Source of the DNA: Escherichia coli
GTDB taxonomy: Bacteria; Pseudomonadota; Gammaproteobacteria; Enterobacterales; Enterobacteriaceae
DNA: 64,000 nt
Strand: one strand, 5' to 3'
NCBI RefSeq assembly: GCF_003991155.1
Contig: NZ_CP031293.1
Part shown: piece by piece, positions 20,646 to 44,671 of the stretch
Layout of the letters: each line of letters starts with the position of its first letter
Position numbering within the stretch: the first letter of the stretch is position 1
Notes under the pieces: generated by a model
Told to the model about the DNA's origin: nothing
What the model saw: the letters and a program-made list of their open reading frames with translations, nothing else
Database searches by the model: none
Translations under genes and position numbers: made by a program

Positions 20646-20692
20646 AGCCCATCCTTTGTTATCAACTTGTTATTTGCGTTAATAAACACAAA

Positions 20693-20707
20693 GCAAGGGG
20701 TGTGCCA
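20693..20707 (-). promoter_or_regulatory. sigma-54 promoter (-24 TGGCAC / -12 TTGC) for prpBCDE
   Basis: Reverse complement reads TGGCACACCCCTTGC, i.e. GG-N10-GC, about 50 bp upstream of the prpB start; consistent with the adjacent sigma-54 activator prpR. Confidence 0.75.
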
Positions 20708-35542: not shown

Positions 35543-36631
35543 TCAACCACCGGCTTTCATTACCCATTCAGAGATAAATTTATTACCCGGTACTGGCGGA
35601 GAGTACAAATAGCCCTGCAAAAAGTGAACGCCTTTGCCGATCATTAAATCCGCCTGCTCCTGGGTTTCTACCCCTTCCGCCACGATACTCAGACCAGGCT
35701 TACGCGCCAGTTCGACAATATTGTCCACAATATGACCGGATATTTCGTCCACGCTCGCCATTTGCACAAATGACTTATCGATCTTAATAAAATCGACCGG
35801 GAACGCCTGCAAGTAACGATAGGTTGCATAACCCGTACCAAAGTCATCCAGCGCAAAGGTAATGTTGTGCTGATGAAGGCTGTCAAATATCGCTCTGGCT
35901 TCTGGCGTTACCGGAATAGGGTTACGTTCCGTTAACTCGAGAACCAGTTTGATTTTATCGTTACCTAATTTCTTAACCAGGTTCAGACACTCTTTTTCAA
36001 ATCCTGCGGCCAAAAAACATCCTGCCGAGACGTTGATGCCAATATGGAAATTATCCGGCAGCAAATGTTTTACTGGCATCAGAATATCCGCAGTCTGTTT
36101 CATCAGCTGGCGAGTCATTATGACGATAAGACCAGATGACTCCGCCAGAGGAATAAACTGATCCGGTGGGATAATTCCCGTTTGCGGATGTTCCCAGCGA
36201 ACAAGCACCTCACAGCCCGTCAGTACCCCAGTCTGCGCGCAGAAAACCGGTTGGATCCACGGTTTAAATTCATGGTTTTCCAACGCCAGACTGATGGCTT
36301 CAGGCGTGACGATATGGTGATAGTGATTATCATTAATATATTTGTGACTATTATTACCCGTGGCGGATATGATCTCCGGATTGTACTGAAAGAAAATATC
36401 CCGCCAGAAAGTAATATCGCTCTGAATCCCCAGTTTCTCAAAGAGCTGTTTCTTTTGATGTGAAATGGTCTTTGCACTGCGATTTCTGTACTGTGATATT
36501 TCTGTTACAGACATTCCCTGCATCAGCAGCTTGAGTAGCAGTCGTTCTTTCTCGGATACGCTACCAGGCAATGACAAATGAACCGTTGTACCGAACTCTT
36601 GCAGAAAAACACGAAAATCACATGAATTCAT
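35543..36631 (-). CDS. pdeL: c-di-GMP phosphodiesterase with LuxR-type HTH and EAL domain
   Basis: ORF 35543..36637; ATG at 36631 gives MNSCDFRVFLQEF (362 aa); EAL-domain motifs LVLELTE and DDFGTGYA. Confidence 0.9.
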   Translation of the reverse strand: MNSCDFRVFLQEFGTTVHLSLPGSVSEKERLLLKLLMQGMSVTEISQYRNRSAKTISHQKKQLFEKLGIQSDITFWRDIFFQYNPEIISATGNNSHKYINDNHYHHIVTPEAISLALENHEFKPWIQPVFCAQTGVLTGCEVLVRWEHPQTGIIPPDQFIPLAESSGLIVIMTRQLMKQTADILMPVKHLLPDNFHIGINVSAGCFLAAGFEKECLNLVKKLGNDKIKLVLELTERNPIPVTPEARAIFDSLHQHNITFALDDFGTGYATYRYLQAFPVDFIKIDKSFVQMASVDEISGHIVDNIVELARKPGLSIVAEGVETQEQADLMIGKGVHFLQGYLYSPPVPGNKFISEWVMKAGG

Positions 36632-37461
36632 GAACACACCTTTTATCTTTTATCGCTGTTCAGTATGAGTGATTACCTGTGGATTCCTGAGCACACATAA
36701 GGGGTAACCATAAACATTAGCGATGCCATACGTATAACATCCCACATCACTATCAAGAAGATTATCTTTACCTCTGATGCTCGCTCAAAAACAGTTACGC
36801 TAAATACCTTAAAAAGGTAATCACAAGTCAAACTCAGGAGATAATCACGCAAGAATGCAATATTAAAATTCAGATACTCATTTTTGGTAATAAAGAAGTA
36901 GTTGGACTATTTCGATATTTATAATTTCCCACTACGTATTGACGCCCATTCATGAGTAAAGGCGCATTATATGAATTTAACAATCCAGATCAACTGAAAA
37001 TACCTCAACCTCATAAACACATAGCGTCAACATTCAATGACATAATGAGTAAAGATGTTGGTTATGCATACACGTCATTACTCTATGCCTATCCCTTAAC
37101 AACCTGCTTTTTAAGACTGAATCCATTCAGCAATAGATAGCCAACATTATAACAATGACAATAAAAACAATATTTAAAACAATCAATAAAATATCAGGCA
37201 CAGACAATTAAACCTTAAACAACAAACGGTTACATTGATTTTAGTTGATTTGCGCTACGCGTTCCCCATGAATAAAGCGTCATTTCAAATTAGCACCAAT
37301 ATTTACATTAAATAAGACTAAGCTTATTGAACATTCACAACAGTCCAAACGTAGGTTTTGGGCTTCAATAGTTCTTTTCTTTTTTATTATCTGTTGCCTG
37401 GCAATCATCAATCGATACTAAGGGCTTAACTGTACAGATATAACGTATCAAGAGGTAAGAG

Positions 37462-37494
37462 AAACCGCGCCATATGCAGACATGGCGCGGTTTT
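37462..37494 (-). terminator. probable intrinsic terminator downstream of betT
   Basis: Perfect 12-bp inverted repeat AAACCGCGCCAT/ATGGCGCGGTTT around an 8-nt loop; on the minus strand the stem is followed by UUUCUCUU; 13 bp past the betT stop. Confidence 0.55.
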
Positions 37495-37506
37495 ATGCAA
37501 AAACAA

Positions 37507-39540
37507 TCACGCGTCCGGGAACATCACGCTATGGCCCGGCGCTTCACGATGGAGATGGATAAAGTTAAGATGCCGCTCGTACTGGTCAAGAATATCGGTG
37601 ATCACCTGCTCTTTGCTGTAGTCCATCAGGTCGTTGCCCTGGCTGCCTTCTAACAGGAAGGTTTCCAGCCGGTAGTAGGTCGATTTACCGCTACGTGCGC
37701 GGTAGGTAAAGCCCGGCACCGAATATTGCTGCGGCCAAATCTGATAGACAAAGTTTTGCTCTTCGCCCATATGCACCAACAAATCCAGATGCCCCAACTG
37801 TTGTCCCTCTTCCGGCGGCAGGCTTTTTAGCTCCACGTACGCGCCGCGCAACCGCAACTCCTGCGCCACTTCTTCCATTGCCGGGTAACAGACCGTCTCC
37901 ATCATCTGTTTAGTGTAACGCGTGCCCGGATAATTCATCAGGCGCGAGAGACGTTTTTTCCAGCTCAGGCGATCCTGAAGCCCCAGCGGTCGCGGTGCGG
38001 TATCGCGGTTGGCACTTTCACGGCGGTAATCTTCTACCTTCAGAGATTTATACAACCCCGCCATCACGAAGAAGATCACAAAGCTGAACGGCAGGCCCAT
38101 AATCACCGTGGTGTTTTGCAGCGCGGATATCCCGTTGGTCATCAGCATGCCGAGCGTCAGCAGGCCAATCGCCACCGACCAGAAGACGCGCAGCCAGCCG
38201 GGGGCGTCGCTGTTGATATCTTTAAGCTGCGAGGTGAAATTCCCCAGCACCAGCGCCCCGGAGTCCGCCGAGGTCACATAAAACAGCAGGCCAGTAATGG
38301 TGGCGACGGAGGCGCTAAAGGTAAACGCCGGATACTGCGCCAGCAGGCTGTAGAAGCCGCGCTCCGGATGGACCATCGCTTCCTCGGCAAATGCCGCGCC
38401 GCCGTGGATGATTTCATACAGCGCGCTATTGCCGAACACCGAGAGCCATAACAGCGTGAAGGTAAACGGAATAATCAACGTGCCCAGCACGAACTGGCGA
38501 ATGGTACGCCCACGCGAGATACGCGCCAGGAACAAGCCGACAAACGGCGACCATGCCACCCACCATGCCCAGAAGAAGAGCGTCCAGTTATTCATCCACT
38601 CAACCGGACGGTCGAAGGCAAAACTGTTGAGCGTCATGCCCATAAAGCGATTCACATAGTCGCCAACATTCAGCACCAGTGCATTAAGCAGGAACGAAGT
38701 GTCGCCCATAAACAACACGAAAAGGATCAATCCCAGCGCCAGCGCAACGTTAAGTTCCGATAACACGCGAATGCCCTTATCGACACCGGAGGTGACAGAG
38801 ATCGTTGCGATGATCACCGACAAGGCGATCAGTGCCGCTTTCGCCGCCATTGAATCGGGAATATCAAACAGTACGCTCAAGCCATAGTTAAGCTGCACCA
38901 CACCAATACCGAGCGTAGTGGCAATACCGAAGATGGTGCCGATCACCGCTGCAATATCCACTGAGTGACCTATCGGCCCGTTAATCCGTTTACCGAAGAT
39001 CGGGTACAGCGCTGAGCGGATGGTGAGCGGCAAATTATAACGATAGCTAAAGTATCCGAGCGCCATGCCCATCAGCGCATACATCGACCAGCCGGTTAAG
39101 CCGTAGTGAAACAGCGTCCAGACCATCGCCTGACGCGCGGCCTCAATCGTCTGACCCGCGCCTTCCGGCGGCTGCATATACTGCGTTACCGGTTCGGCTA
39201 CGGAAAAGAACATCAGGTCGATACCGATCCCGGCAGCAAACAGCATCGCCGCCCAACTCAGCAGACTGAATTCCGGTTTTGATTGTTCTGGCCCGAGCTT
39301 CACCGAACCAAAACGCGAACAAGCGATACAGACCACAAAGACAATATAGAGCGTTGCCGCCAGCAGATAGTACCAACCGAAGGTTTTAGAAACCCAGTCC
39401 AGCGTGCGGTCAATCCACAGGGCCGAGAAGTCGCGAAACAGGATCGTTGTCAGGGAAAACAACAAAATCAGTCCGGCGGAAGTGTAAAACACCACCGGAT
39501 TGATTTTGTCCTTTTCCCTGCTGTGTGAAAGGTCTGTCAT
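37507..39540 (-). CDS. betT: high-affinity choline transporter (BCCT family)
   Basis: 677-aa polytopic ORF MTDLSHSREKDKINPVVFYTSAGLILLFS; divergent from betIBA. Confidence 0.95.
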   Translation of the reverse strand: MTDLSHSREKDKINPVVFYTSAGLILLFSLTTILFRDFSALWIDRTLDWVSKTFGWYYLLAATLYIVFVVCIACSRFGSVKLGPEQSKPEFSLLSWAAMLFAAGIGIDLMFFSVAEPVTQYMQPPEGAGQTIEAARQAMVWTLFHYGLTGWSMYALMGMALGYFSYRYNLPLTIRSALYPIFGKRINGPIGHSVDIAAVIGTIFGIATTLGIGVVQLNYGLSVLFDIPDSMAAKAALIALSVIIATISVTSGVDKGIRVLSELNVALALGLILFVLFMGDTSFLLNALVLNVGDYVNRFMGMTLNSFAFDRPVEWMNNWTLFFWAWWVAWSPFVGLFLARISRGRTIRQFVLGTLIIPFTFTLLWLSVFGNSALYEIIHGGAAFAEEAMVHPERGFYSLLAQYPAFTFSASVATITGLLFYVTSADSGALVLGNFTSQLKDINSDAPGWLRVFWSVAIGLLTLGMLMTNGISALQNTTVIMGLPFSFVIFFVMAGLYKSLKVEDYRRESANRDTAPRPLGLQDRLSWKKRLSRLMNYPGTRYTKQMMETVCYPAMEEVAQELRLRGAYVELKSLPPEEGQQLGHLDLLVHMGEEQNFVYQIWPQQYSVPGFTYRARSGKSTYYRLETFLLEGSQGNDLMDYSKEQVITDILDQYERHLNFIHLHREAPGHSVMFPDA

Positions 39541-39597
39541 CCAGTATCCCCACTGTTATTGTTACCATTTAAAATCAAATTAGTAACAATTAAGACA

Positions 39598-39625
39598 CAT
39601 TTTATATTGAACGTCCAATCAATAA
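39598..39625. promoter_or_regulatory. probable BetI operator in the betT-betI divergent promoter region
   Basis: Reverse complement reads TTGATTGGACGTTCAATATAAAATG, an imperfect inverted repeat (TTGATTGGA / TTCAAT) matching the BetI site as I recall it. Confidence 0.5.
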
Positions 39626-39668
39626 CCGCTTTAATAGATAAACAACGCTGATGAATGGAGTGGCGAAA

Positions 39669-40256
39669 ATGCCCAAATTGGGGATGCAGTCGATCCGGCG
39701 CAGACAACTGATCGACGCCACGCTGGAAGCAATAAATGAAGTGGGCATGCACGATGCAACGATCGCGCAGATCGCCCGCCGTGCAGGCGTTTCTACGGGG
39801 ATCATCAGCCACTATTTCAGGGACAAAAATGGTCTGCTGGAAGCAACCATGCGCGATATCACCAGTCAGCTGCGTGACGCGGTTTTGAATCGATTACATG
39901 CACTTCCGCAGGGCAGTGCAGAGCAGCGATTACAGGCGATTGTTGGCGGAAACTTCGATGAAACGCAGGTGAGCAGTGCGGCGATGAAAGCCTGGCTGGC
40001 GTTCTGGGCCAGCAGTATGCATCAGCCGATGCTCTATCGTTTACAGCAGGTCAGCAGCCGTCGCTTGCTGTCGAACCTGGTGAGCGAGTTTCGCCGCGAA
40101 TTGCCGCGCCACCAGGCACAGGAAGCGGGCTACGGACTTGCCGCGCTGATTGACGGATTATGGCTGCGCGCGGCACTGAGCGACAAACCGCTGGATAAAC
40201 CTCTCGCACACTCGCTGACCCGTCACTTTATTACTCAGCATTTACCCACCGATTAA
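39669..40256 (+). CDS. betI: TetR-family repressor of the bet regulon
   Basis: ORF 39651..40256; ATG at 39669 gives [50 protein letters not shown] (TetR HTH), 195 aa. Confidence 0.93.
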
Positions 40257-40269
40257 CCGAGGAGACGTG

Positions 40270-41742
40270 ATGTCCCGAATGGCAGAACAGCAGCTTTATA
40301 TACATGGTGGTTATACCTCCGCCACCAGCGGTCGCACCTTCGAGACCATTAACCCGGCCAACGGTAACGTGCTGGCGACCGTGCAGGCCGCCGGGCGTGA
40401 GGATGTCGATCGCGCCGTGAAGAGTGCCCAACAGGGGCAAAAAATCTGGGCGGCGATGACCGCTATGGAACGCTCGCGTATTCTGCGTCGGGCCGTTGAT
40501 ATTCTACGTGAACGCAATGACGAACTCGCAAAACTGGAAACCCTCGACACCGGAAAAGCATATTCGGAAACCTCAACCGTCGATATCGTTACCGGTGCGG
40601 ACGTGCTGGAGTACTACGCCGGGCTGATCCCGGCGCTGGAAGGCAGCCAGATCCCGTTGCGTGAGACGTCATTTGTTTATACCCGCCGCGAACCGCTGGG
40701 CGTAGTGGCAGGGATTGGCGCATGGAACTACCCGATTCAGATTGCCCTGTGGAAATCCGCCCCCGCGCTGGCGGCAGGCAATGCAATGATTTTCAAACCG
40801 AGCGAAGTCACCCCGCTTACCGCGTTAAAGCTGGCCGAAATTTACAGCGAAGCGGGCCTGCCGGACGGCGTATTTAACGTGTTGCCGGGCGTGGGCGCGG
40901 AGACCGGGCAGTATCTGACCGAGCATCCGGGCATTGCCAAAGTGTCATTTACCGGCGGTGTCGCCAGCGGCAAAAAAGTGATGGCTAACTCGGCGGCCTC
41001 TTCCCTGAAAGAAGTGACCATGGAGCTGGGCGGTAAATCACCGCTGATCGTTTTTGACGATGCGGATCTCGATCTCGCCGCCGATATCGCCATGATGGCG
41101 AATTTCTTCAGCTCCGGTCAGGTGTGTACCAACGGCACTCGCGTCTTCGTTCCGACGAAATGCAAAGCCGCATTTGAACAAAAGATTCTGGCGCGCGTTG
41201 AGCGCATTCGCGCGGGCGACGTTTTCGATCCGCAAACTAACTTCGGCCCGCTGGTCAGCTTCCCGCATCGCGATAACGTGCTGCGCTATATCGCCAAAGG
41301 CAAAGAGGAAGGCGCGCGCGTACTGTGCGGCGGCGATGTACTGAAAGGCGATGGCTTCGATAACGGCGCATGGGTTGCACCGACCGTGTTCACCGATTGC
41401 CGCGACGAAATGACCATCGTGCGCGAAGAGATCTTCGGTCCGGTGATGTCGCTTCTCACTTATGAATCTGAGGACGAAGTGATTCGCCGCGCCAATGATA
41501 CCGACTACGGCCTGGCGGCGGGCATCGTGACGGCGGACCTGAACCGCGCGCATCGCGTCATTCATCAGCTGGAAGCGGGTATTTGCTGGCTCAACACCTG
41601 GGGCGAATCCCCTGCTGAGATGCCCGTTGGCGGCTACAAACACTCCGGCATTGGTCGCGAGAACGGCGTGATGACGCTCCAGAGTTACACCCAGGTGAAG
41701 TCCATCCAGGTTGAGATGGCTAAATTCCAGTCCATATTCTAA
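40270..41742 (+). CDS. betB: betaine aldehyde dehydrogenase
   Basis: 490 aa from ATG 40270 ([14 protein letters not shown]); ALDH motifs ELGGKSP and catalytic-Cys segment [13 protein letters not shown]. Confidence 0.95.
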
Positions 41743-41755
41743 CCAGGAGGTTTAT

Positions 41756-43444
41756 TTGCAATTTGACTACATCATTATTGGTGCCGGCTCAGCCGGCAAC
41801 GTTCTCGCTACCCGTCTGACTGAAGATCCGAACACAACCGTGCTGCTGCTTGAAGCAGGCGGCCCGGACTATCGCTTTGACTTCCGCACCCAGATGCCCG
41901 CTGCGCTGGCATTCCCGCTACAGGGTAAACGCTACAACTGGGCCTATGAAACGGAACCGGAACCGTTTATGAACAACCGTCGCATGGAGTGCGGACGCGG
42001 TAAGGGGCTTGGCGGGTCATCACTGATCAACGGCATGTGTTACATCCGTGGTAACGCGCTGGATCTCGATAACTGGGCGCAAGAACCCGGTCTGGAGAAC
42101 TGGAGCTACCTCGACTGTCTGCCCTACTATCGCAAGGCCGAGACTCGCGATGTGGGCGAGAACGATTACCACGGTGGCGATGGCCCGGTGAGCGTCACCA
42201 CCTCCAAACCCGGCGTCAATCCGCTGTTTGAAGCGATGATTGAAGCGGGCGTGCAGGCGGGCTACCCACGCACGGACGATCTCAACGGCTATCAGCAGGA
42301 AGGTTTTGGCCCGATGGATCGCACCGTCACGCCGCATGGCCGTCGCGCCAGCACCGCGCGTGGCTATCTCGCTCAGGCCAAATCGCGCCCTAACCTGACT
42401 ATTCGTACTCACGCCATGACCGATCACATCATTTTTGACAGCAAACGCGCGGTGGGCGTCGAGTGGCTGGAAGGCGACAGCACCATTCCGACCCGCGCGG
42501 CGGCGAATAAAGAAGTGCTGTTATGTGCAGGCGCGATTGCTTCACCGCAGATCCTGCAACGCTCCGGCGTCGGCAACGCTGAACTGCTGGCGGAGTTTGA
42601 TATTCCGCTGGTGCATGAATTACCTGGCGTCGGCGAAAATCTTCAGGATCACCTGGAGATGTATCTGCAATATGAGTGCAAAGAACCGGTTTCCCTCTAC
42701 CCTGCCCTGCAGTGGTGGAATCAGCCGAAAATCGGTGCGGAGTGGCTGTTTGGCGGCACCGGCGTTGGTGCCAGCAACCACTTTGAAGCAGGCGGATTTA
42801 TTCGCAGCCGTGAGGAATTTGCGTGGCCGAATATTCAGTACCATTTCCTGCCAGTGGCGATTAACTATAACGGCTCGAACGCAGTGAAAGAGCACGGCTT
42901 CCAGTGCCACGTCGGATCGATGCGCTCGCCAAGCCGTGGGCATGTGCGGATTAAATCCCGCGACCCGCACCAGCATCCAGCGATTCTGTTTAACTACATG
43001 TCGCACGAGCAGGACTGGCAGGAGTTCCGCGACGCAATTCGCATCACCCGGGAGATCATGCATCAACCGGCGCTGGATCAGTATCGTGGCCGCGAAATCA
43101 GCCCCGGTGTCGAATGCCAGACGGATGAGCAGCTCGATGAGTTTGTGCGTAATCACGCCGAAACCGCCTTCCACCCATGCGGTACGTGCAAAATGGGGTA
43201 CGACGAGATGTCCGTTGTGGATGGCGAAGGCCGCGTGCACGGGCTGGAAGGATTACGCGTAGTCGATGCGTCAATTATGCCGCAGATTATCACCGGCAAT
43301 CTGAACGCCACGACGATTATGATTGGCGAGAAAATGGCGGATATGATTCGCGGGAAGGATGCGTTGCCGAGGAGCACGGCGGGATATTATGTGGCAAATG
43401 GGATGCCGGTGAGAGCGAAAAAAATGAGTCGTGATGTGAACTGA
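41756..43444 (+). CDS. betA: choline dehydrogenase (GMC oxidoreductase)
   Basis: ORF 41711..43444 overlaps betB; likely start is TTG 41756, 5 nt after the RBS AGGAGG, giving (M)[17 protein letters not shown] (FAD-binding). Exact start is uncertain. Confidence 0.93.
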
Positions 43445-43975
43445 CTCAGGAACCTATCAGATTGAGAGTTACCGTTCTACTATGAGGACCGAATCCTTAT
43501 ATAAAACACTGAGGTAACTCTCATGCTTCATATCCAGTATTCATGATGCTGGCTTTTTGCTGATATTTAACCCGAACATTCCTGATACAGACTATTAATT
43601 CATTTATCTGCGGCAGATTTTATTTTCTGGATATATTATGAGTGAACAAATCAAACAGGATATCGATCTGATTGAGATTTTATTTTATCTGAAGAAAAAG
43701 GTAGATGAATACCAACAAAACTCTGGGCAGTAATAAACAGCATTCTGATAGAGAGTGCCTGTATAAAGCTGAAGTGACAATGACCGGGAAGGGAACCCGT
43801 TTTCAGGAATGGATGCCTGTCTTTTTCAATTTAAATATCCTGGCATTAGTAATGCCAGGATATTTACAGAAGAGCAGCATAACCATGACGGAACGGGGTT
43901 AAGTCAGGTTGTCCTAAACGCTATTTTCAACCTCGTATGCCTTCTTCAGGTTTATGTCCAGACTTCATATCTCTC

Positions 43976-44671
43976 TCAACAATCCTCAATAATCAGATAC
44001 ACCGCTTTCACCGGGCCATGAACTCCGACGACTTTGATAAGCTCAATATCCGCCGTTGAACTGGGGCCGCTAATGATGTTAATGCAGGAAGGCATTCGTT
44101 CACCGGCCTGCGCTTTCTGATGCAATTTTTCTGCGAGTTGCGCTACACGCGGCAGGATAGTGCTTTTACGCAGGATAAAAAGAGAAGATTCCGGGAGCAG
44201 GCTCAATGAACGCCCGCGCCCGGCGGCGGAAAAAAGAACCACGCCTCCCGATTCGGTTAAACCATATTCAGCATACACTACGCCAACTTTAGCCTGCTCT
44301 GCTTGTGATATGTTCTCAATACCTTTCGCCGGATCCCAAACAACGGCATTGCATTCCTGCTGCAAACGTTCGCTAATCCCCAATTCCTCCAGCCTCGTGT
44401 CACCGCTAATCACGATCGACTGATCTCCCAGCTCTTTACACAGACGTATTGCAGCTTCTGCCGCCTTCGCCTCGCTGGTCAGTTCACAGCGCGTCAACAT
44501 AACATCGCTGGCAAACTGGATAAACGCGTCACAGCGCTGCTGTTGGGTAAGTTGGGTAAGCCGCTCGTTAGCATAGTTGTTTAGCGGCGCATCTTCTGCT
44601 TGCGGTTCAAGTCGCAGCGGGCGACCCAGTGCCTGAGCAACGTTATTCAAAAATTCGCTCCGATTATCCAT
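43976..44671 (-). CDS. ykgG: LutC-like protein (DUF162)
   Basis: ORF 43976..44824; ATG at 44671 gives MDNRSEFLNNVAQALGRPL (231 aa); 8-nt overlap with the ykgF stop. Confidence 0.85.
   Translation of the reverse strand: MDNRSEFLNNVAQALGRPLRLEPQAEDAPLNNYANERLTQLTQQQRCDAFIQFASDVMLTRCELTSEAKAAEAAIRLCKELGDQSIVISGDTRLEELGISERLQQECNAVVWDPAKGIENISQAEQAKVGVVYAEYGLTESGGVVLFSAAGRGRSLSLLPESSLFILRKSTILPRVAQLAEKLHQKAQAGERMPSCINIISGPSSTADIELIKVVGVHGPVKAVYLIIEDC

Follow-up and report, generated by a model that had tools for sequence, protein, structure and literature searches.

The 531 bp that separate betA from ykgG in the Escherichia coli DNA analysed here (contig NZ_CP031293.1; the whole stretch of 64,000 nucleotides is referred to as the window) are best explained as the ordinary E. 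coli betA-ykgH-ykgG interval minus one lineage-specific deletion. We consider this explanation probable, a judgement that covers it as a whole and includes the role proposed below for a long palindrome next to ykgG. The deletion removes 573 bp from the inside of ykgH. All the features of the gap other than the deletion junction are older than the deletion, namely a relic of an IS481-family insertion sequence, a hairpin behind betA, the ykgH promoter region, the RNA of the ykgH 3' untranslated region (3'UTR) and the palindrome. The locus matters little by itself, as it adds one further allele to a series of eroding ykgH genes, and the deletion and the palindrome are both ordinary features.

Layout of the betA-ykgG interval

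The betA stop codon occupies positions 43442-43444 and the stop codon of ykgG, on the minus strand, begins at 43976, leaving a gap of 531 bp (43445-43975) with a G+C content of 0.34-0.38 (around 35%) as compared to 0.54-0.59 in the flanking genes. A preliminary description of this DNA had pointed to an A+T-rich gap of this size devoid of a ykgH-sized reading frame, and had placed a ykgH of roughly 222 aa between betA and ykgG in K-12. Both statements hold. Indeed, the largest open reading frames touching the gap are of 31 aa (43638-43733, plus strand), 65 aa (43705-43902, plus strand) and 70 aa (43809-44021, plus strand), and in MG1655 and other K-12 records ykgH is a gene of 669 bp and 222 aa located between betA and ykgG and oriented as betA. 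The ykgG gene is convergent with both betA and ykgH. The features of the interval, in window coordinates, are the following:

43418 to 43444, plus strand: 3' end of betA (K-12 alignment, translation, annotation of strains e1-39 and M25631H)
43428 to 43535, plus strand: relic of the left end of an IS481-family element, about 108 bp (homology to intact plasmid copies)
43534 to 43558, plus strand: terminator-like hairpin CCAGTATTCATGATGCTGG (43534-43552) followed by CTTTTT, 90 nt past the betA stop (terminator scan)
43610 to 43637, plus strand: retained ykgH promoter region, GCGGCA-16-TATATT, in K-12 GCGACA-16-TATATT (K-12 scan, alignment)
43638 to 43733, plus strand: ykgH remnant, a 31-codon reading frame in which MSEQIKQDIDLIEILFYLKKK is joined to VDEYQQNSGQ (alignment with K-12, e1-39 and M25631H, prefix and suffix arithmetic)
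43734 to 43826, plus strand: ykgH 3'UTR, a candidate Hfq-associated small RNA (Term-seq mapping, probe mapping, identity with K-12)
43832 to 43866, no strand assigned: perfect 17+1+17 palindrome with arms at 43832-43848 and 43850-43866 and a 21-bp core at 43839-43859 (inverted-repeat search)
43867 to 43975, minus strand: 3' untranslated spacer of ykgG (minus-strand fold of 43830-43975, terminator scan)
43976 to 44671, minus strand: ykgG (lutC-like), last gene of ykgEFG (lutABC-like L-lactate dehydrogenase) (list of open reading frames, annotation of homologous records)

An in-frame deletion within ykgH

The deletion was mapped by base-by-base alignment of the window with K-12 and with the near-identical relatives e1-39 and M25631H. 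The alignment is colinear on either side of a single junction, GAAGAAAAA / GGTAGATG, which falls at 43699/43700 to 43700/43701 with a 1-nt G microhomology. In the 96-nt remnant, 63 nt from the start of the 669-nt K-12 ykgH are joined to 34 nt from its end, with one G shared; 573 bp, corresponding to 191 codons (22-212), are gone in frame, and residues 1-21 are joined to residues 213-222. What remains of ykgH is its start, its first 21 and last 10 codons and its stop, together with the upstream region and the entire 3'UTR. The two predicted transmembrane segments of YkgH (K-12 b0310) were lost along with its periplasmic part. The predicted product of the remnant, MSEQIKQDIDLIEILFYLKKKVDEYQQNSGQ, keeps neither hydrophobic segment, and the 31-codon frame cannot encode the two-transmembrane YkgH protein. 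As for YkgH itself, searches returned no Pfam or NCBIfam match and no PDB sequence match, with only sub-threshold matches to Wzz and GNVR.

The preliminary description had taken ykgH to be absent or replaced. The full-size gene is missing, but replacement is wrong: the alignment with K-12 defines the indel as one clean 573-bp in-frame internal deletion in the same DNA, with K-12 having the full ykgH at this place and not the same 531-bp interval. Substitution of ykgH by foreign or unrelated DNA, to which the low G+C content of the gap would lend itself and nothing further, is already refuted by the alignment, in which all 531 bp run colinear with K-12, about 94-98% identical to either side of one junction and with no added sequence, and can be set aside. 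The breakpoints lie within two similar A-rich decamers, GAAGAAAAAG and CAAAAAAATG, that match at 7 of 10 positions, and slipped mispairing between them is a plausible cause of the deletion.

A 60-mer spanning the junction is found in 77 of 5,426 complete E. coli genomes, SMS-3-5 included, once in each and always in the chromosome. SMS-3-5 and the window are 99.2% identical over 3,060 bp, gap-free. The PGAP annotation treats the remnant as a partial pseudogene in both SMS-3-5 and e1-39, and in SMS-3-5 also calls an overlapping 65-aa "hypothetical protein"; the 31-codon fragment and this overlapping 65-codon frame are annotation artefacts of the deletion.

Full-length YkgH has been lost in other ways as well. 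A sister allele, present in 90 genomes and among them in strain ST648, carries a 168-bp in-frame deletion that leaves a 166-aa protein (SMS-3-5 and ST648 both belong to phylogroup F). An internal stop interrupts ykgH in O157:H7 and in RM19259, and an IS1 truncates it in 2021CK-01361. In e1-39, an IS1 is inserted in the 3'UTR of the allele with the 573-bp deletion, with a 9-bp duplication, CGTTTTCAG. Since the 168-bp deletion falls within the span of the 573-bp one and the flanks of M25631H are 99.7% identical to the window (731-bp query), stepwise decay is a parsimonious, if unproven, course of events; in it, the full-length gene would first have lost the 168 bp, next another 405 bp, and would finally have received the IS1. 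The window allele joins a series indicating that ykgH is dispensable and is eroding independently in several E. coli lineages, and as a lineage-specific gene remnant it is nothing out of the ordinary. In strain engineering, ykgH routinely serves for neutral integration, which fits with this dispensability.

The betA end and the IS481-family relic

The left border of the gap is itself a composite. A run of seven A (43418-43424), in place of six in K-12, moves the betA stop, and BetA is therefore 562 aa long here as compared to 556 aa in K-12; in keeping with the alignment, betA is annotated as 1689 bp in e1-39 and M25631H, which share this betA allele, and as 1671 bp in K-12. The K-12 stop, as well as the last six codons and the stop of betA in the window, lie inside the IS481-like relic. 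Past the betA stop, the hairpin at 43534-43558 is the probable, predicted terminator of betIBA.

The relic holds an inverted-repeat-like end, the leader and the first 3-4 codons of a transposase (ATGCTTCATA). Intact IS481-family copies are found on plasmids of E. coli and E. albertii, such as pN96-1 and CP057646.1 (33,280-34,320, with a 346-aa transposase), and the plasmid transposase frame matches the NCBIfam family transpos_IS481 (E=2.5e-41). Homology to the insertion sequence stops after ATGCTTCATA, with neither a transposase frame nor a right end left; the segment is a relic as judged by its sequence, not an element.

An 11-bp inverted repeat that had been noticed in this segment is real, with the start at 43463 and not at about 43471, a difference of roughly 8 nt. 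Its arms, TGAGAGTTACC (43463-43473) and GGTAACTCTCA (43513-43523), are 100% complementary and 39 nt apart. Identical arms occur in the intact IS481-family element, where they bracket the leader, with the 3' arm placed between the transposase Shine-Dalgarno sequence (GAGG) and the ATG (GAGGTAACTCTCATG). Inverted repeats over the ribosome-binding site and start codon are the usual means by which insertion sequences leave read-through transcripts untranslated, and by analogy the 11-bp repeat may have had the same anti-read-through role in this element.

The inner edge of the relic (about 43527-43530), just ahead of the hairpin behind betA, is a recurrent breakpoint of island insertions and deletions in other lineages. 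In B2 and O157 strains an autotransporter gene lies between betA and ykgH, and homology to the window resumes at 43530. In E. whittamii, bet and ykgH are gone, the segment corresponding to 43365-43527 is kept beside ykgG, and homology ends at 43527.

The ykgH promoter region and the 3'UTR RNA

The deletion left the promoter region of ykgH in place. Genomic SELEX lists the ykgH promoter as a constitutive RpoD promoter and reports H-NS binding at the ykgH-betA spacer (PMC3946193). Judging from its sequence, the promoter may be active in the lineage of the window.

The 3'UTR is of interest on account of the RNA that derives from it. In RIL-seq, the "ykgH 3'UTR" was named as a putative Hfq-dependent 3'UTR-derived small RNA with a target motif (PMC5145812); in a follow-up it scored high and RNA-seq reads did accumulate there, with a negative northern in K-12 (PMC8175672). 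The sequences of the northern probes from this follow-up map to 43779-43816 of the window. The 93-nt 3'UTR differs from that of K-12 by one substitution, and its end is formed by a small hairpin, CAGGAAUGGAUGCCUG (43804-43819), followed by UCUUUUU (43820-43826). A B2 allele bears a G-to-U change by which this small hairpin becomes a clean 6-bp stem.

A curated K-12 Term-seq list places a ykgH-sense 3' end at MG1655 324,603(-), entered three times in a file that spans three growth conditions, with two of the counts being 43,492 and 126,276 (PMC7815308). By coordinate mapping and by identity at 51 of 51 nt up to the mapped 3' end, this position corresponds to 43826 of the window, the last U of CAGGAAUGGAUGCCUG-UCUUUUU, and the K-12 RNA ends with CCUGUCUUUUU. 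At the other end, a promoter scan of the window gave no convincing call for the 5' end of a small RNA.

The 3'UTR RNA and its 3' end had already been published for K-12, and the 11-bp inverted repeat belongs to an insertion sequence relic; nothing at this locus should surprise a specialist. What the strains carrying the window allele, e.g. SMS-3-5, do provide are natural backgrounds that are null for the ykgH coding sequence and intact for the 3'UTR, in which it can be asked whether the "ykgH 3'UTR" RNA regulates independently of the protein.

A long palindrome next to ykgG

The preliminary description had singled out CCTGGCATTAGTAATGCCAGG, at 43839-43859, as a perfect 10+1+10 palindrome. Position and symmetry were exact, and the palindrome proved to be longer than these 21 bp, since the perfect arms extend to 17+1+17. 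No other perfect hairpin-type inverted repeat of at least 12 nt occurs in the 64-kb window. A stable hairpin can form from either strand, as RNA or as DNA; the RNA folds reach -23.3 kcal/mol on one strand and -22.7 kcal/mol on the other (z of -7.5 and -7.3 against shuffled sequences), a stability far past chance. It starts 5 nt past the position of the ykgH RNA 3' end; in MG1655, it spans 324,560-324,600, with its first base about 3-5 nt beyond the mapped ykgH-sense end.

Of 5,426 complete E. coli genomes, 5,141 (about 95%), K-12 included, carry the palindrome at a single locus, the two matches counted in each genome being the two strands of that locus; it is therefore not a consequence of the indel. 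The single copy per genome, with no second copy in the window, rules out a member of a REP or MITE repeat family. An Rfam search of 43300-44100 at a permissive threshold turned up only chance matches of the hairpin to families of eukaryotic miRNA and snoRNA. The palindrome is unannotated in K-12 and belongs to a familiar class, that of hairpins in convergent spacers.

Several alleles can be distinguished within E. coli. O157 and RM19259 have a perfect 20+1+20 palindrome, relative to which the lineage of the window has lost basal pairs 18 and 20. O26 has C at the centre, B2 strains have T at the centre along with one G·U or A·C position, the arms are changed at two positions in K-12, M25631H also has a variant allele, and in ETEC1747 an IS2 is inserted in the right arm. 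Among six alleles the central base is G, T or C, as expected of a loop position, and on either strand the folding energy of every intact allele lies between -21 and -29 kcal/mol. Five arm positions vary in the allele comparison, none of them with a compensating change, and the density of variable sites is no lower than in the flanks (6 of 41 positions in the palindrome, 10 of 95 and 9 of 109 in the flanks). The allele comparison within E. coli thus yields no evidence of selection on the palindrome.

Covariation was judged within E. coli alleles only, since the other genomes recovered lack a comparable locus. A search of genome contigs with YkgG retrieved 74 loci. The three recovered loci that are labelled as Escherichia (two of them from species other than E. 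coli, the third from a genome that was deposited under that name but has 89% DNA identity) are without the whole bet-ykgH block, and in Citrobacter and other genera the sequence downstream of ykgG is unrelated to the window. In Citrobacter, Kosakonia and Mixta, a strong hairpin or a canonical terminator directly follows ykgG. In E. coli, transcription past ykgG meets no strong hairpin before the palindrome, 110 nt after the stop, as neither the minus-strand fold of 43830-43975 nor the terminator scan revealed another one in between.

Possible roles of the palindrome

A bidirectional terminator for the convergent betA and ykgG transcripts had been put forward in the preliminary description. This proposal holds loosely at best: the hairpin is stable on both strands and lies in a convergent spacer, but betA has a terminator-like hairpin of its own (43534-43552), the ykgH-sense end mapped in K-12 lies upstream of the palindrome and a canonical U-tract is lacking. 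In particular, the palindrome was not called by the terminator scan, and neither strand has a canonical U-tract, with 5 or more U in 8 nt, immediately 3' of the stem. The tail, AUAUUUAC, contains 4 U among its 8 nt on each strand and takes part in the pairing of the predicted hairpin. The real stretch of U, UCUUUUU, precedes the hairpin on the ykgH strand, so that on the ykgG strand it is an A-run that follows the hairpin.

Published K-12 data on transcript ends bear on both directions of transcription. The only Term-seq 3' end at 3245xx-3246xx is 324,603(-), just upstream of the palindrome, and no end is listed at the palindrome base. The list contains no ykgG-sense (plus-strand) 3' end at the palindrome either, with the qualification that ykgEFG may be poorly expressed in the media used. 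K-12 minus-strand coverage drops tenfold (160 to 16) across 324,578, with 3.5-fold more read-through upon inhibition of Rho by bicyclomycin (PMC7815308); the bicyclomycin calls use 800-nt windows and are too coarse to be pinned on the palindrome itself, and the drop is explained equally well by the mapped end at 324,603. In the opposite direction, ykgG-sense transcription was called Rho-terminated at 324,913(+), inside antisense ykgH (Adams et al., PMC7815308), and some ykgG-sense transcription must therefore pass the palindrome.

On these grounds we tentatively favour the possibility that the palindrome is a weak structure-based barrier, or a 3'-end stem-loop, common to the convergent ykgEFG and ykgH units. 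It would work as an RNA stem-loop on both strands, with a 10-bp G+C-containing upper stem between partly complementary UAAAUAU and AUAUUUA tracts. For ykgEFG transcripts it is the first stable structure past the stop and could serve as a weak intrinsic terminator or as a block to 3' exonucleases, with Rho completing termination further on; for ykgH-sense read-through it would act as a backstop behind a weak primary terminator. Its location, immediately past a mapped RNA 3' end and in the space where two transcription units converge, speaks in favour of a hairpin role. Since the deletion removed the antisense-ykgH region in which Rho terminates in K-12, the palindrome and the betA-side hairpins would alone separate ykgEFG from betIBA in the lineage of the window.

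The main rival is a palindrome with no function at all, i.e., a neutral palindrome or quasi-palindrome, recently arisen or mutationally maintained in A+T-rich, H-NS-bound and probably acquired DNA, that slowly decays in each lineage. The uncompensated arm substitutions and a variability at least as high as that of the flanks are in line with such decay, as are the different single defects that lineages bear relative to the perfect 20+1+20 of O157. The region is low in G+C, with H-NS binding reported at the upstream ykgH-betA spacer (PMC3946193), IS1 and IS2 insertions adjoining or within the palindrome are tolerated, and the base shows neither a canonical U-tract nor a mapped 3' end. However, a perfect 41-bp palindrome is not a chance product, all intact alleles retain a folding energy of -21 kcal/mol or lower on each strand, and functional hairpins are to be expected in just such a place, between convergent units and directly behind a mapped RNA 3' end. 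Moreover, E. coli lineages are too young for missing covariation to weigh heavily. We thus regard absence of function as unlikely, although it deserves to be taken seriously.

A more ambitious interpretation is that the deletion has made ykgH, once a gene for a protein, into a compact RNA gene. The ykgH promoter would drive a transcript of about 190 nt that combines the 31-codon frame with the Hfq-associated 3'UTR RNA, this RNA, nearly identical in sequence to that of K-12, would be what selection retains, and the palindrome would insulate it from ykgEFG. The insulation would be called for because the deletion took away the antisense-ykgH region that is Rho-terminated in K-12. We consider this improbable. 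Against it speaks a separate observation, i.e., that e1-39 tolerates an IS1 inside the 3'UTR RNA.

The palindrome might also be read at the DNA level, as an operator of a dimeric regulator or as a sigma54-type site. Dyad symmetry is perfect, TGGCAT-N5-ATGCC shows on both strands the GG/GC spacing of a -24/-12 element as read from the sequence, a weak genomic-SELEX peak of the RpoE holoenzyme is listed in the convergent ykgG/ykgH spacer (PMC5493296), and the two K-12 substitutions create TGGTAATACCA, a box of the FadR/GntR type. However, the spacer is of the 3'-3' kind and the scan found no promoter-like site nearby, the strict sigma54 pattern is not matched, the sigma54 ChIP-seq supplementary data examined contain no ykgG/ykgH site, and the LldR genomic-SELEX tables contain no ykg site. 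A perfect arm of 17-20 bp is also far longer than typical operators, and half-site positions differ between lineages. An LldR or PdhR-type operator, suggested by TGGTAATACCA in K-12, was rejected on the basis of the same LldR tables and of the absence of the box from the window allele. The dimeric-regulator site envisaged in the first reading of this DNA accordingly found no support among the regulators checked (sigma54 ChIP-seq supplements and LldR genomic-SELEX tables), and we judge an operator or sigma54-type role to be quite improbable.

Least tenable is a palindrome acting as the primary intrinsic terminator of ykgH and of its 3'UTR small RNA candidate. It is the strongest hairpin downstream of ykgH, and the 3' ends of small RNAs are normally terminator hairpins. 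Yet the abundant K-12 end at 324,603(-) precedes it, coming after a separate small hairpin and UCUUUUU, and an end made at the palindrome or trimmed to it would fall at its downstream base, near 324,560. This role is contradicted for K-12 and is very improbable overall. Indeed, with the mapped ykgH-sense 3' end lying 3-5 nt ahead of it, the palindrome cannot be the primary ykgH terminator; it is not the main terminator of this gene.

Returning to the barrier or stem-loop role that we tentatively favour, a near-perfect palindrome of 35-41 bp offers a clean test case of whether long hairpins that lack U-tracts can act as barriers between convergent operons.

Comparison with known systems

The features of this interval can be set against four better known situations. 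As compared to the IS481-family plasmid element (e.g., that of CP057646.1), the segment at about 43428-43535 aligns with the left end, the leader and the start codon and has identical 11-bp arms; unlike the plasmid element, only about 108 bp are left in the window, and they form an old relic that is present in E. whittamii too.

With the other ykgH decay alleles of E. coli, the window allele shares the locus and the loss of the full-length protein. It differs in being the most extreme in-frame loss, with 191 of 222 codons gone, and in being found in only 77 of 5,426 complete genomes.

The K-12 "ykgH 3'UTR" small RNA candidate has, but for one base, the same sequence at 43734-43826 of the window, including the probe targets and the hairpin with its UCUUUUU end. 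The difference lies in the host coding sequence, which here has 31 codons and would thus place the putative RNA only about 190 nt from the ykgH promoter.

Bidirectional intrinsic terminators at convergent gene pairs form a general class known from the SEnd-seq and Term-seq literature. The palindrome resembles them in being symmetric, in lying in a 3'-3' spacer, in being stable on both strands and in having an upper stem that contains G+C, flanked by a lower stem rich in A/U. Unlike them, it is without an uninterrupted U-tract, the sole mapped 3' end is upstream of its base, and some ykgG-sense transcription passes it and is terminated by Rho later on.

The IS481 relic and the betA 3' end

The betA gene of the window ends in DNA left behind by an insertion sequence. 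In particular, the encoded protein has 562 aa versus 556 aa in K-12, i.e., six additional codons (window 43418-43444), and an A-run near the end of the gene, which is A6 in K-12, is A7 in the window, thus shifting the stop from a TGA at the edge of the IS481 relic to a TGA 18 nt downstream. The C-terminal tail, ...KKMSRDVN, is coded by IS481-relic DNA.

The age of the relic can be approached through Escherichia genomes that have been compared with window 37444-43967, namely Escherichia sp. E1V33, E. whittamii and SCPM-O-B-8794, the last deposited as 'E. coli'. The betT-betIBA-ykgH block is entirely missing from all three, and their ykgG adjoins DNA homologous to window ~36001-37444. In E. whittamii, a betA 3' remnant and the IS481 relic (together window 43365-43527) are kept directly after ykgG as the only part of the block, and the presence of the relic in this species too indicates that it predates the split of the two species. 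The relic also borders an insertion in other lineages. Indeed, in B2 strains and O157:H7 an autotransporter gene, annotated as hyxB or as an adhesin and degraded in the O157 copy, sits between betA and ykgH; in ST131, O157:H7 and A25 the breakpoint lies at window ~43530, with homology picking up again exactly past the relic.

The ykgH-ykgG spacer and its palindrome

Insertion sequences are found in the ykgH-ykgG spacer of two other strains:

Window equivalent 43798-43806: IS1 in e1-39, inside the ykgH 3'UTR terminator region, with a 9-bp duplication of CGTTTTCAG
Window equivalent ~43862: IS2 in ETEC1747, inside the palindrome right arm

Two small ORFs run across the ykgH 3'UTR and the palindrome:

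43705-43902, plus strand: 65-codon ORF, labelled 'hypothetical protein' by PGAP in SMS-3-5 (WP_012311773.1)
43809-44021, plus strand: 70-codon ORF

Neither has family matches, and both are probably spurious.

As to regulator-type motifs, the K-12 allele of the palindrome (L001 ~2570-2590, equivalent to window 43840-43860) carries an A-to-G and a G-to-A substitution, which jointly give TGGTAATACCA, a perfect FadR/GntR-type box (TGGT-N3-ACCA) lying 2 nt off the palindrome centre. The box may be a coincidence, and no ykg sites are present in the LldR genomic-SELEX tables. The neighbouring ykgG is part of a lactate-utilisation operon.

Both strands of window 43839-43859 read TGGCAT-N5-ATGCC, which has the GG/GC spacing of the sigma54 -24/-12 element; the sigma54 ChIP-seq supplements searched contain no site at ykgG or ykgH. 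A strict sigma54 promoter pattern has one exact match in the window versus 0.5 expected by chance, TGGCACACCCCTTGCT (20692-20707, minus strand). The convergent ykgG/ykgH spacer also has a listed genomic-SELEX peak for RpoE holoenzyme (PMC5493296), of low intensity (5.6) and located at W3110 coordinate 323,832, corresponding to window ~43820-43830, where no convincing match to the sigmaE -35/-10 elements was seen by eye.

YkgH homologs on plasmids

Full-length YkgH homologs, with 29% identity, are carried as cargo by small mobilizable plasmids, and 41 plasmid records match YkgH at <60% identity. Two loci are compared here:

L001 1795-2463: K-12 ykgH
L089 1407-2081: plasmid YkgH homolog, Enterobacter cloacae 5.2-kb plasmid

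In both proteins the N-terminus has a sub-threshold Pfam match to Wzz and the C-terminus one to GNVR, which suggests that YkgH could be a small-scale version of a polysaccharide co-polymerase-like protein.
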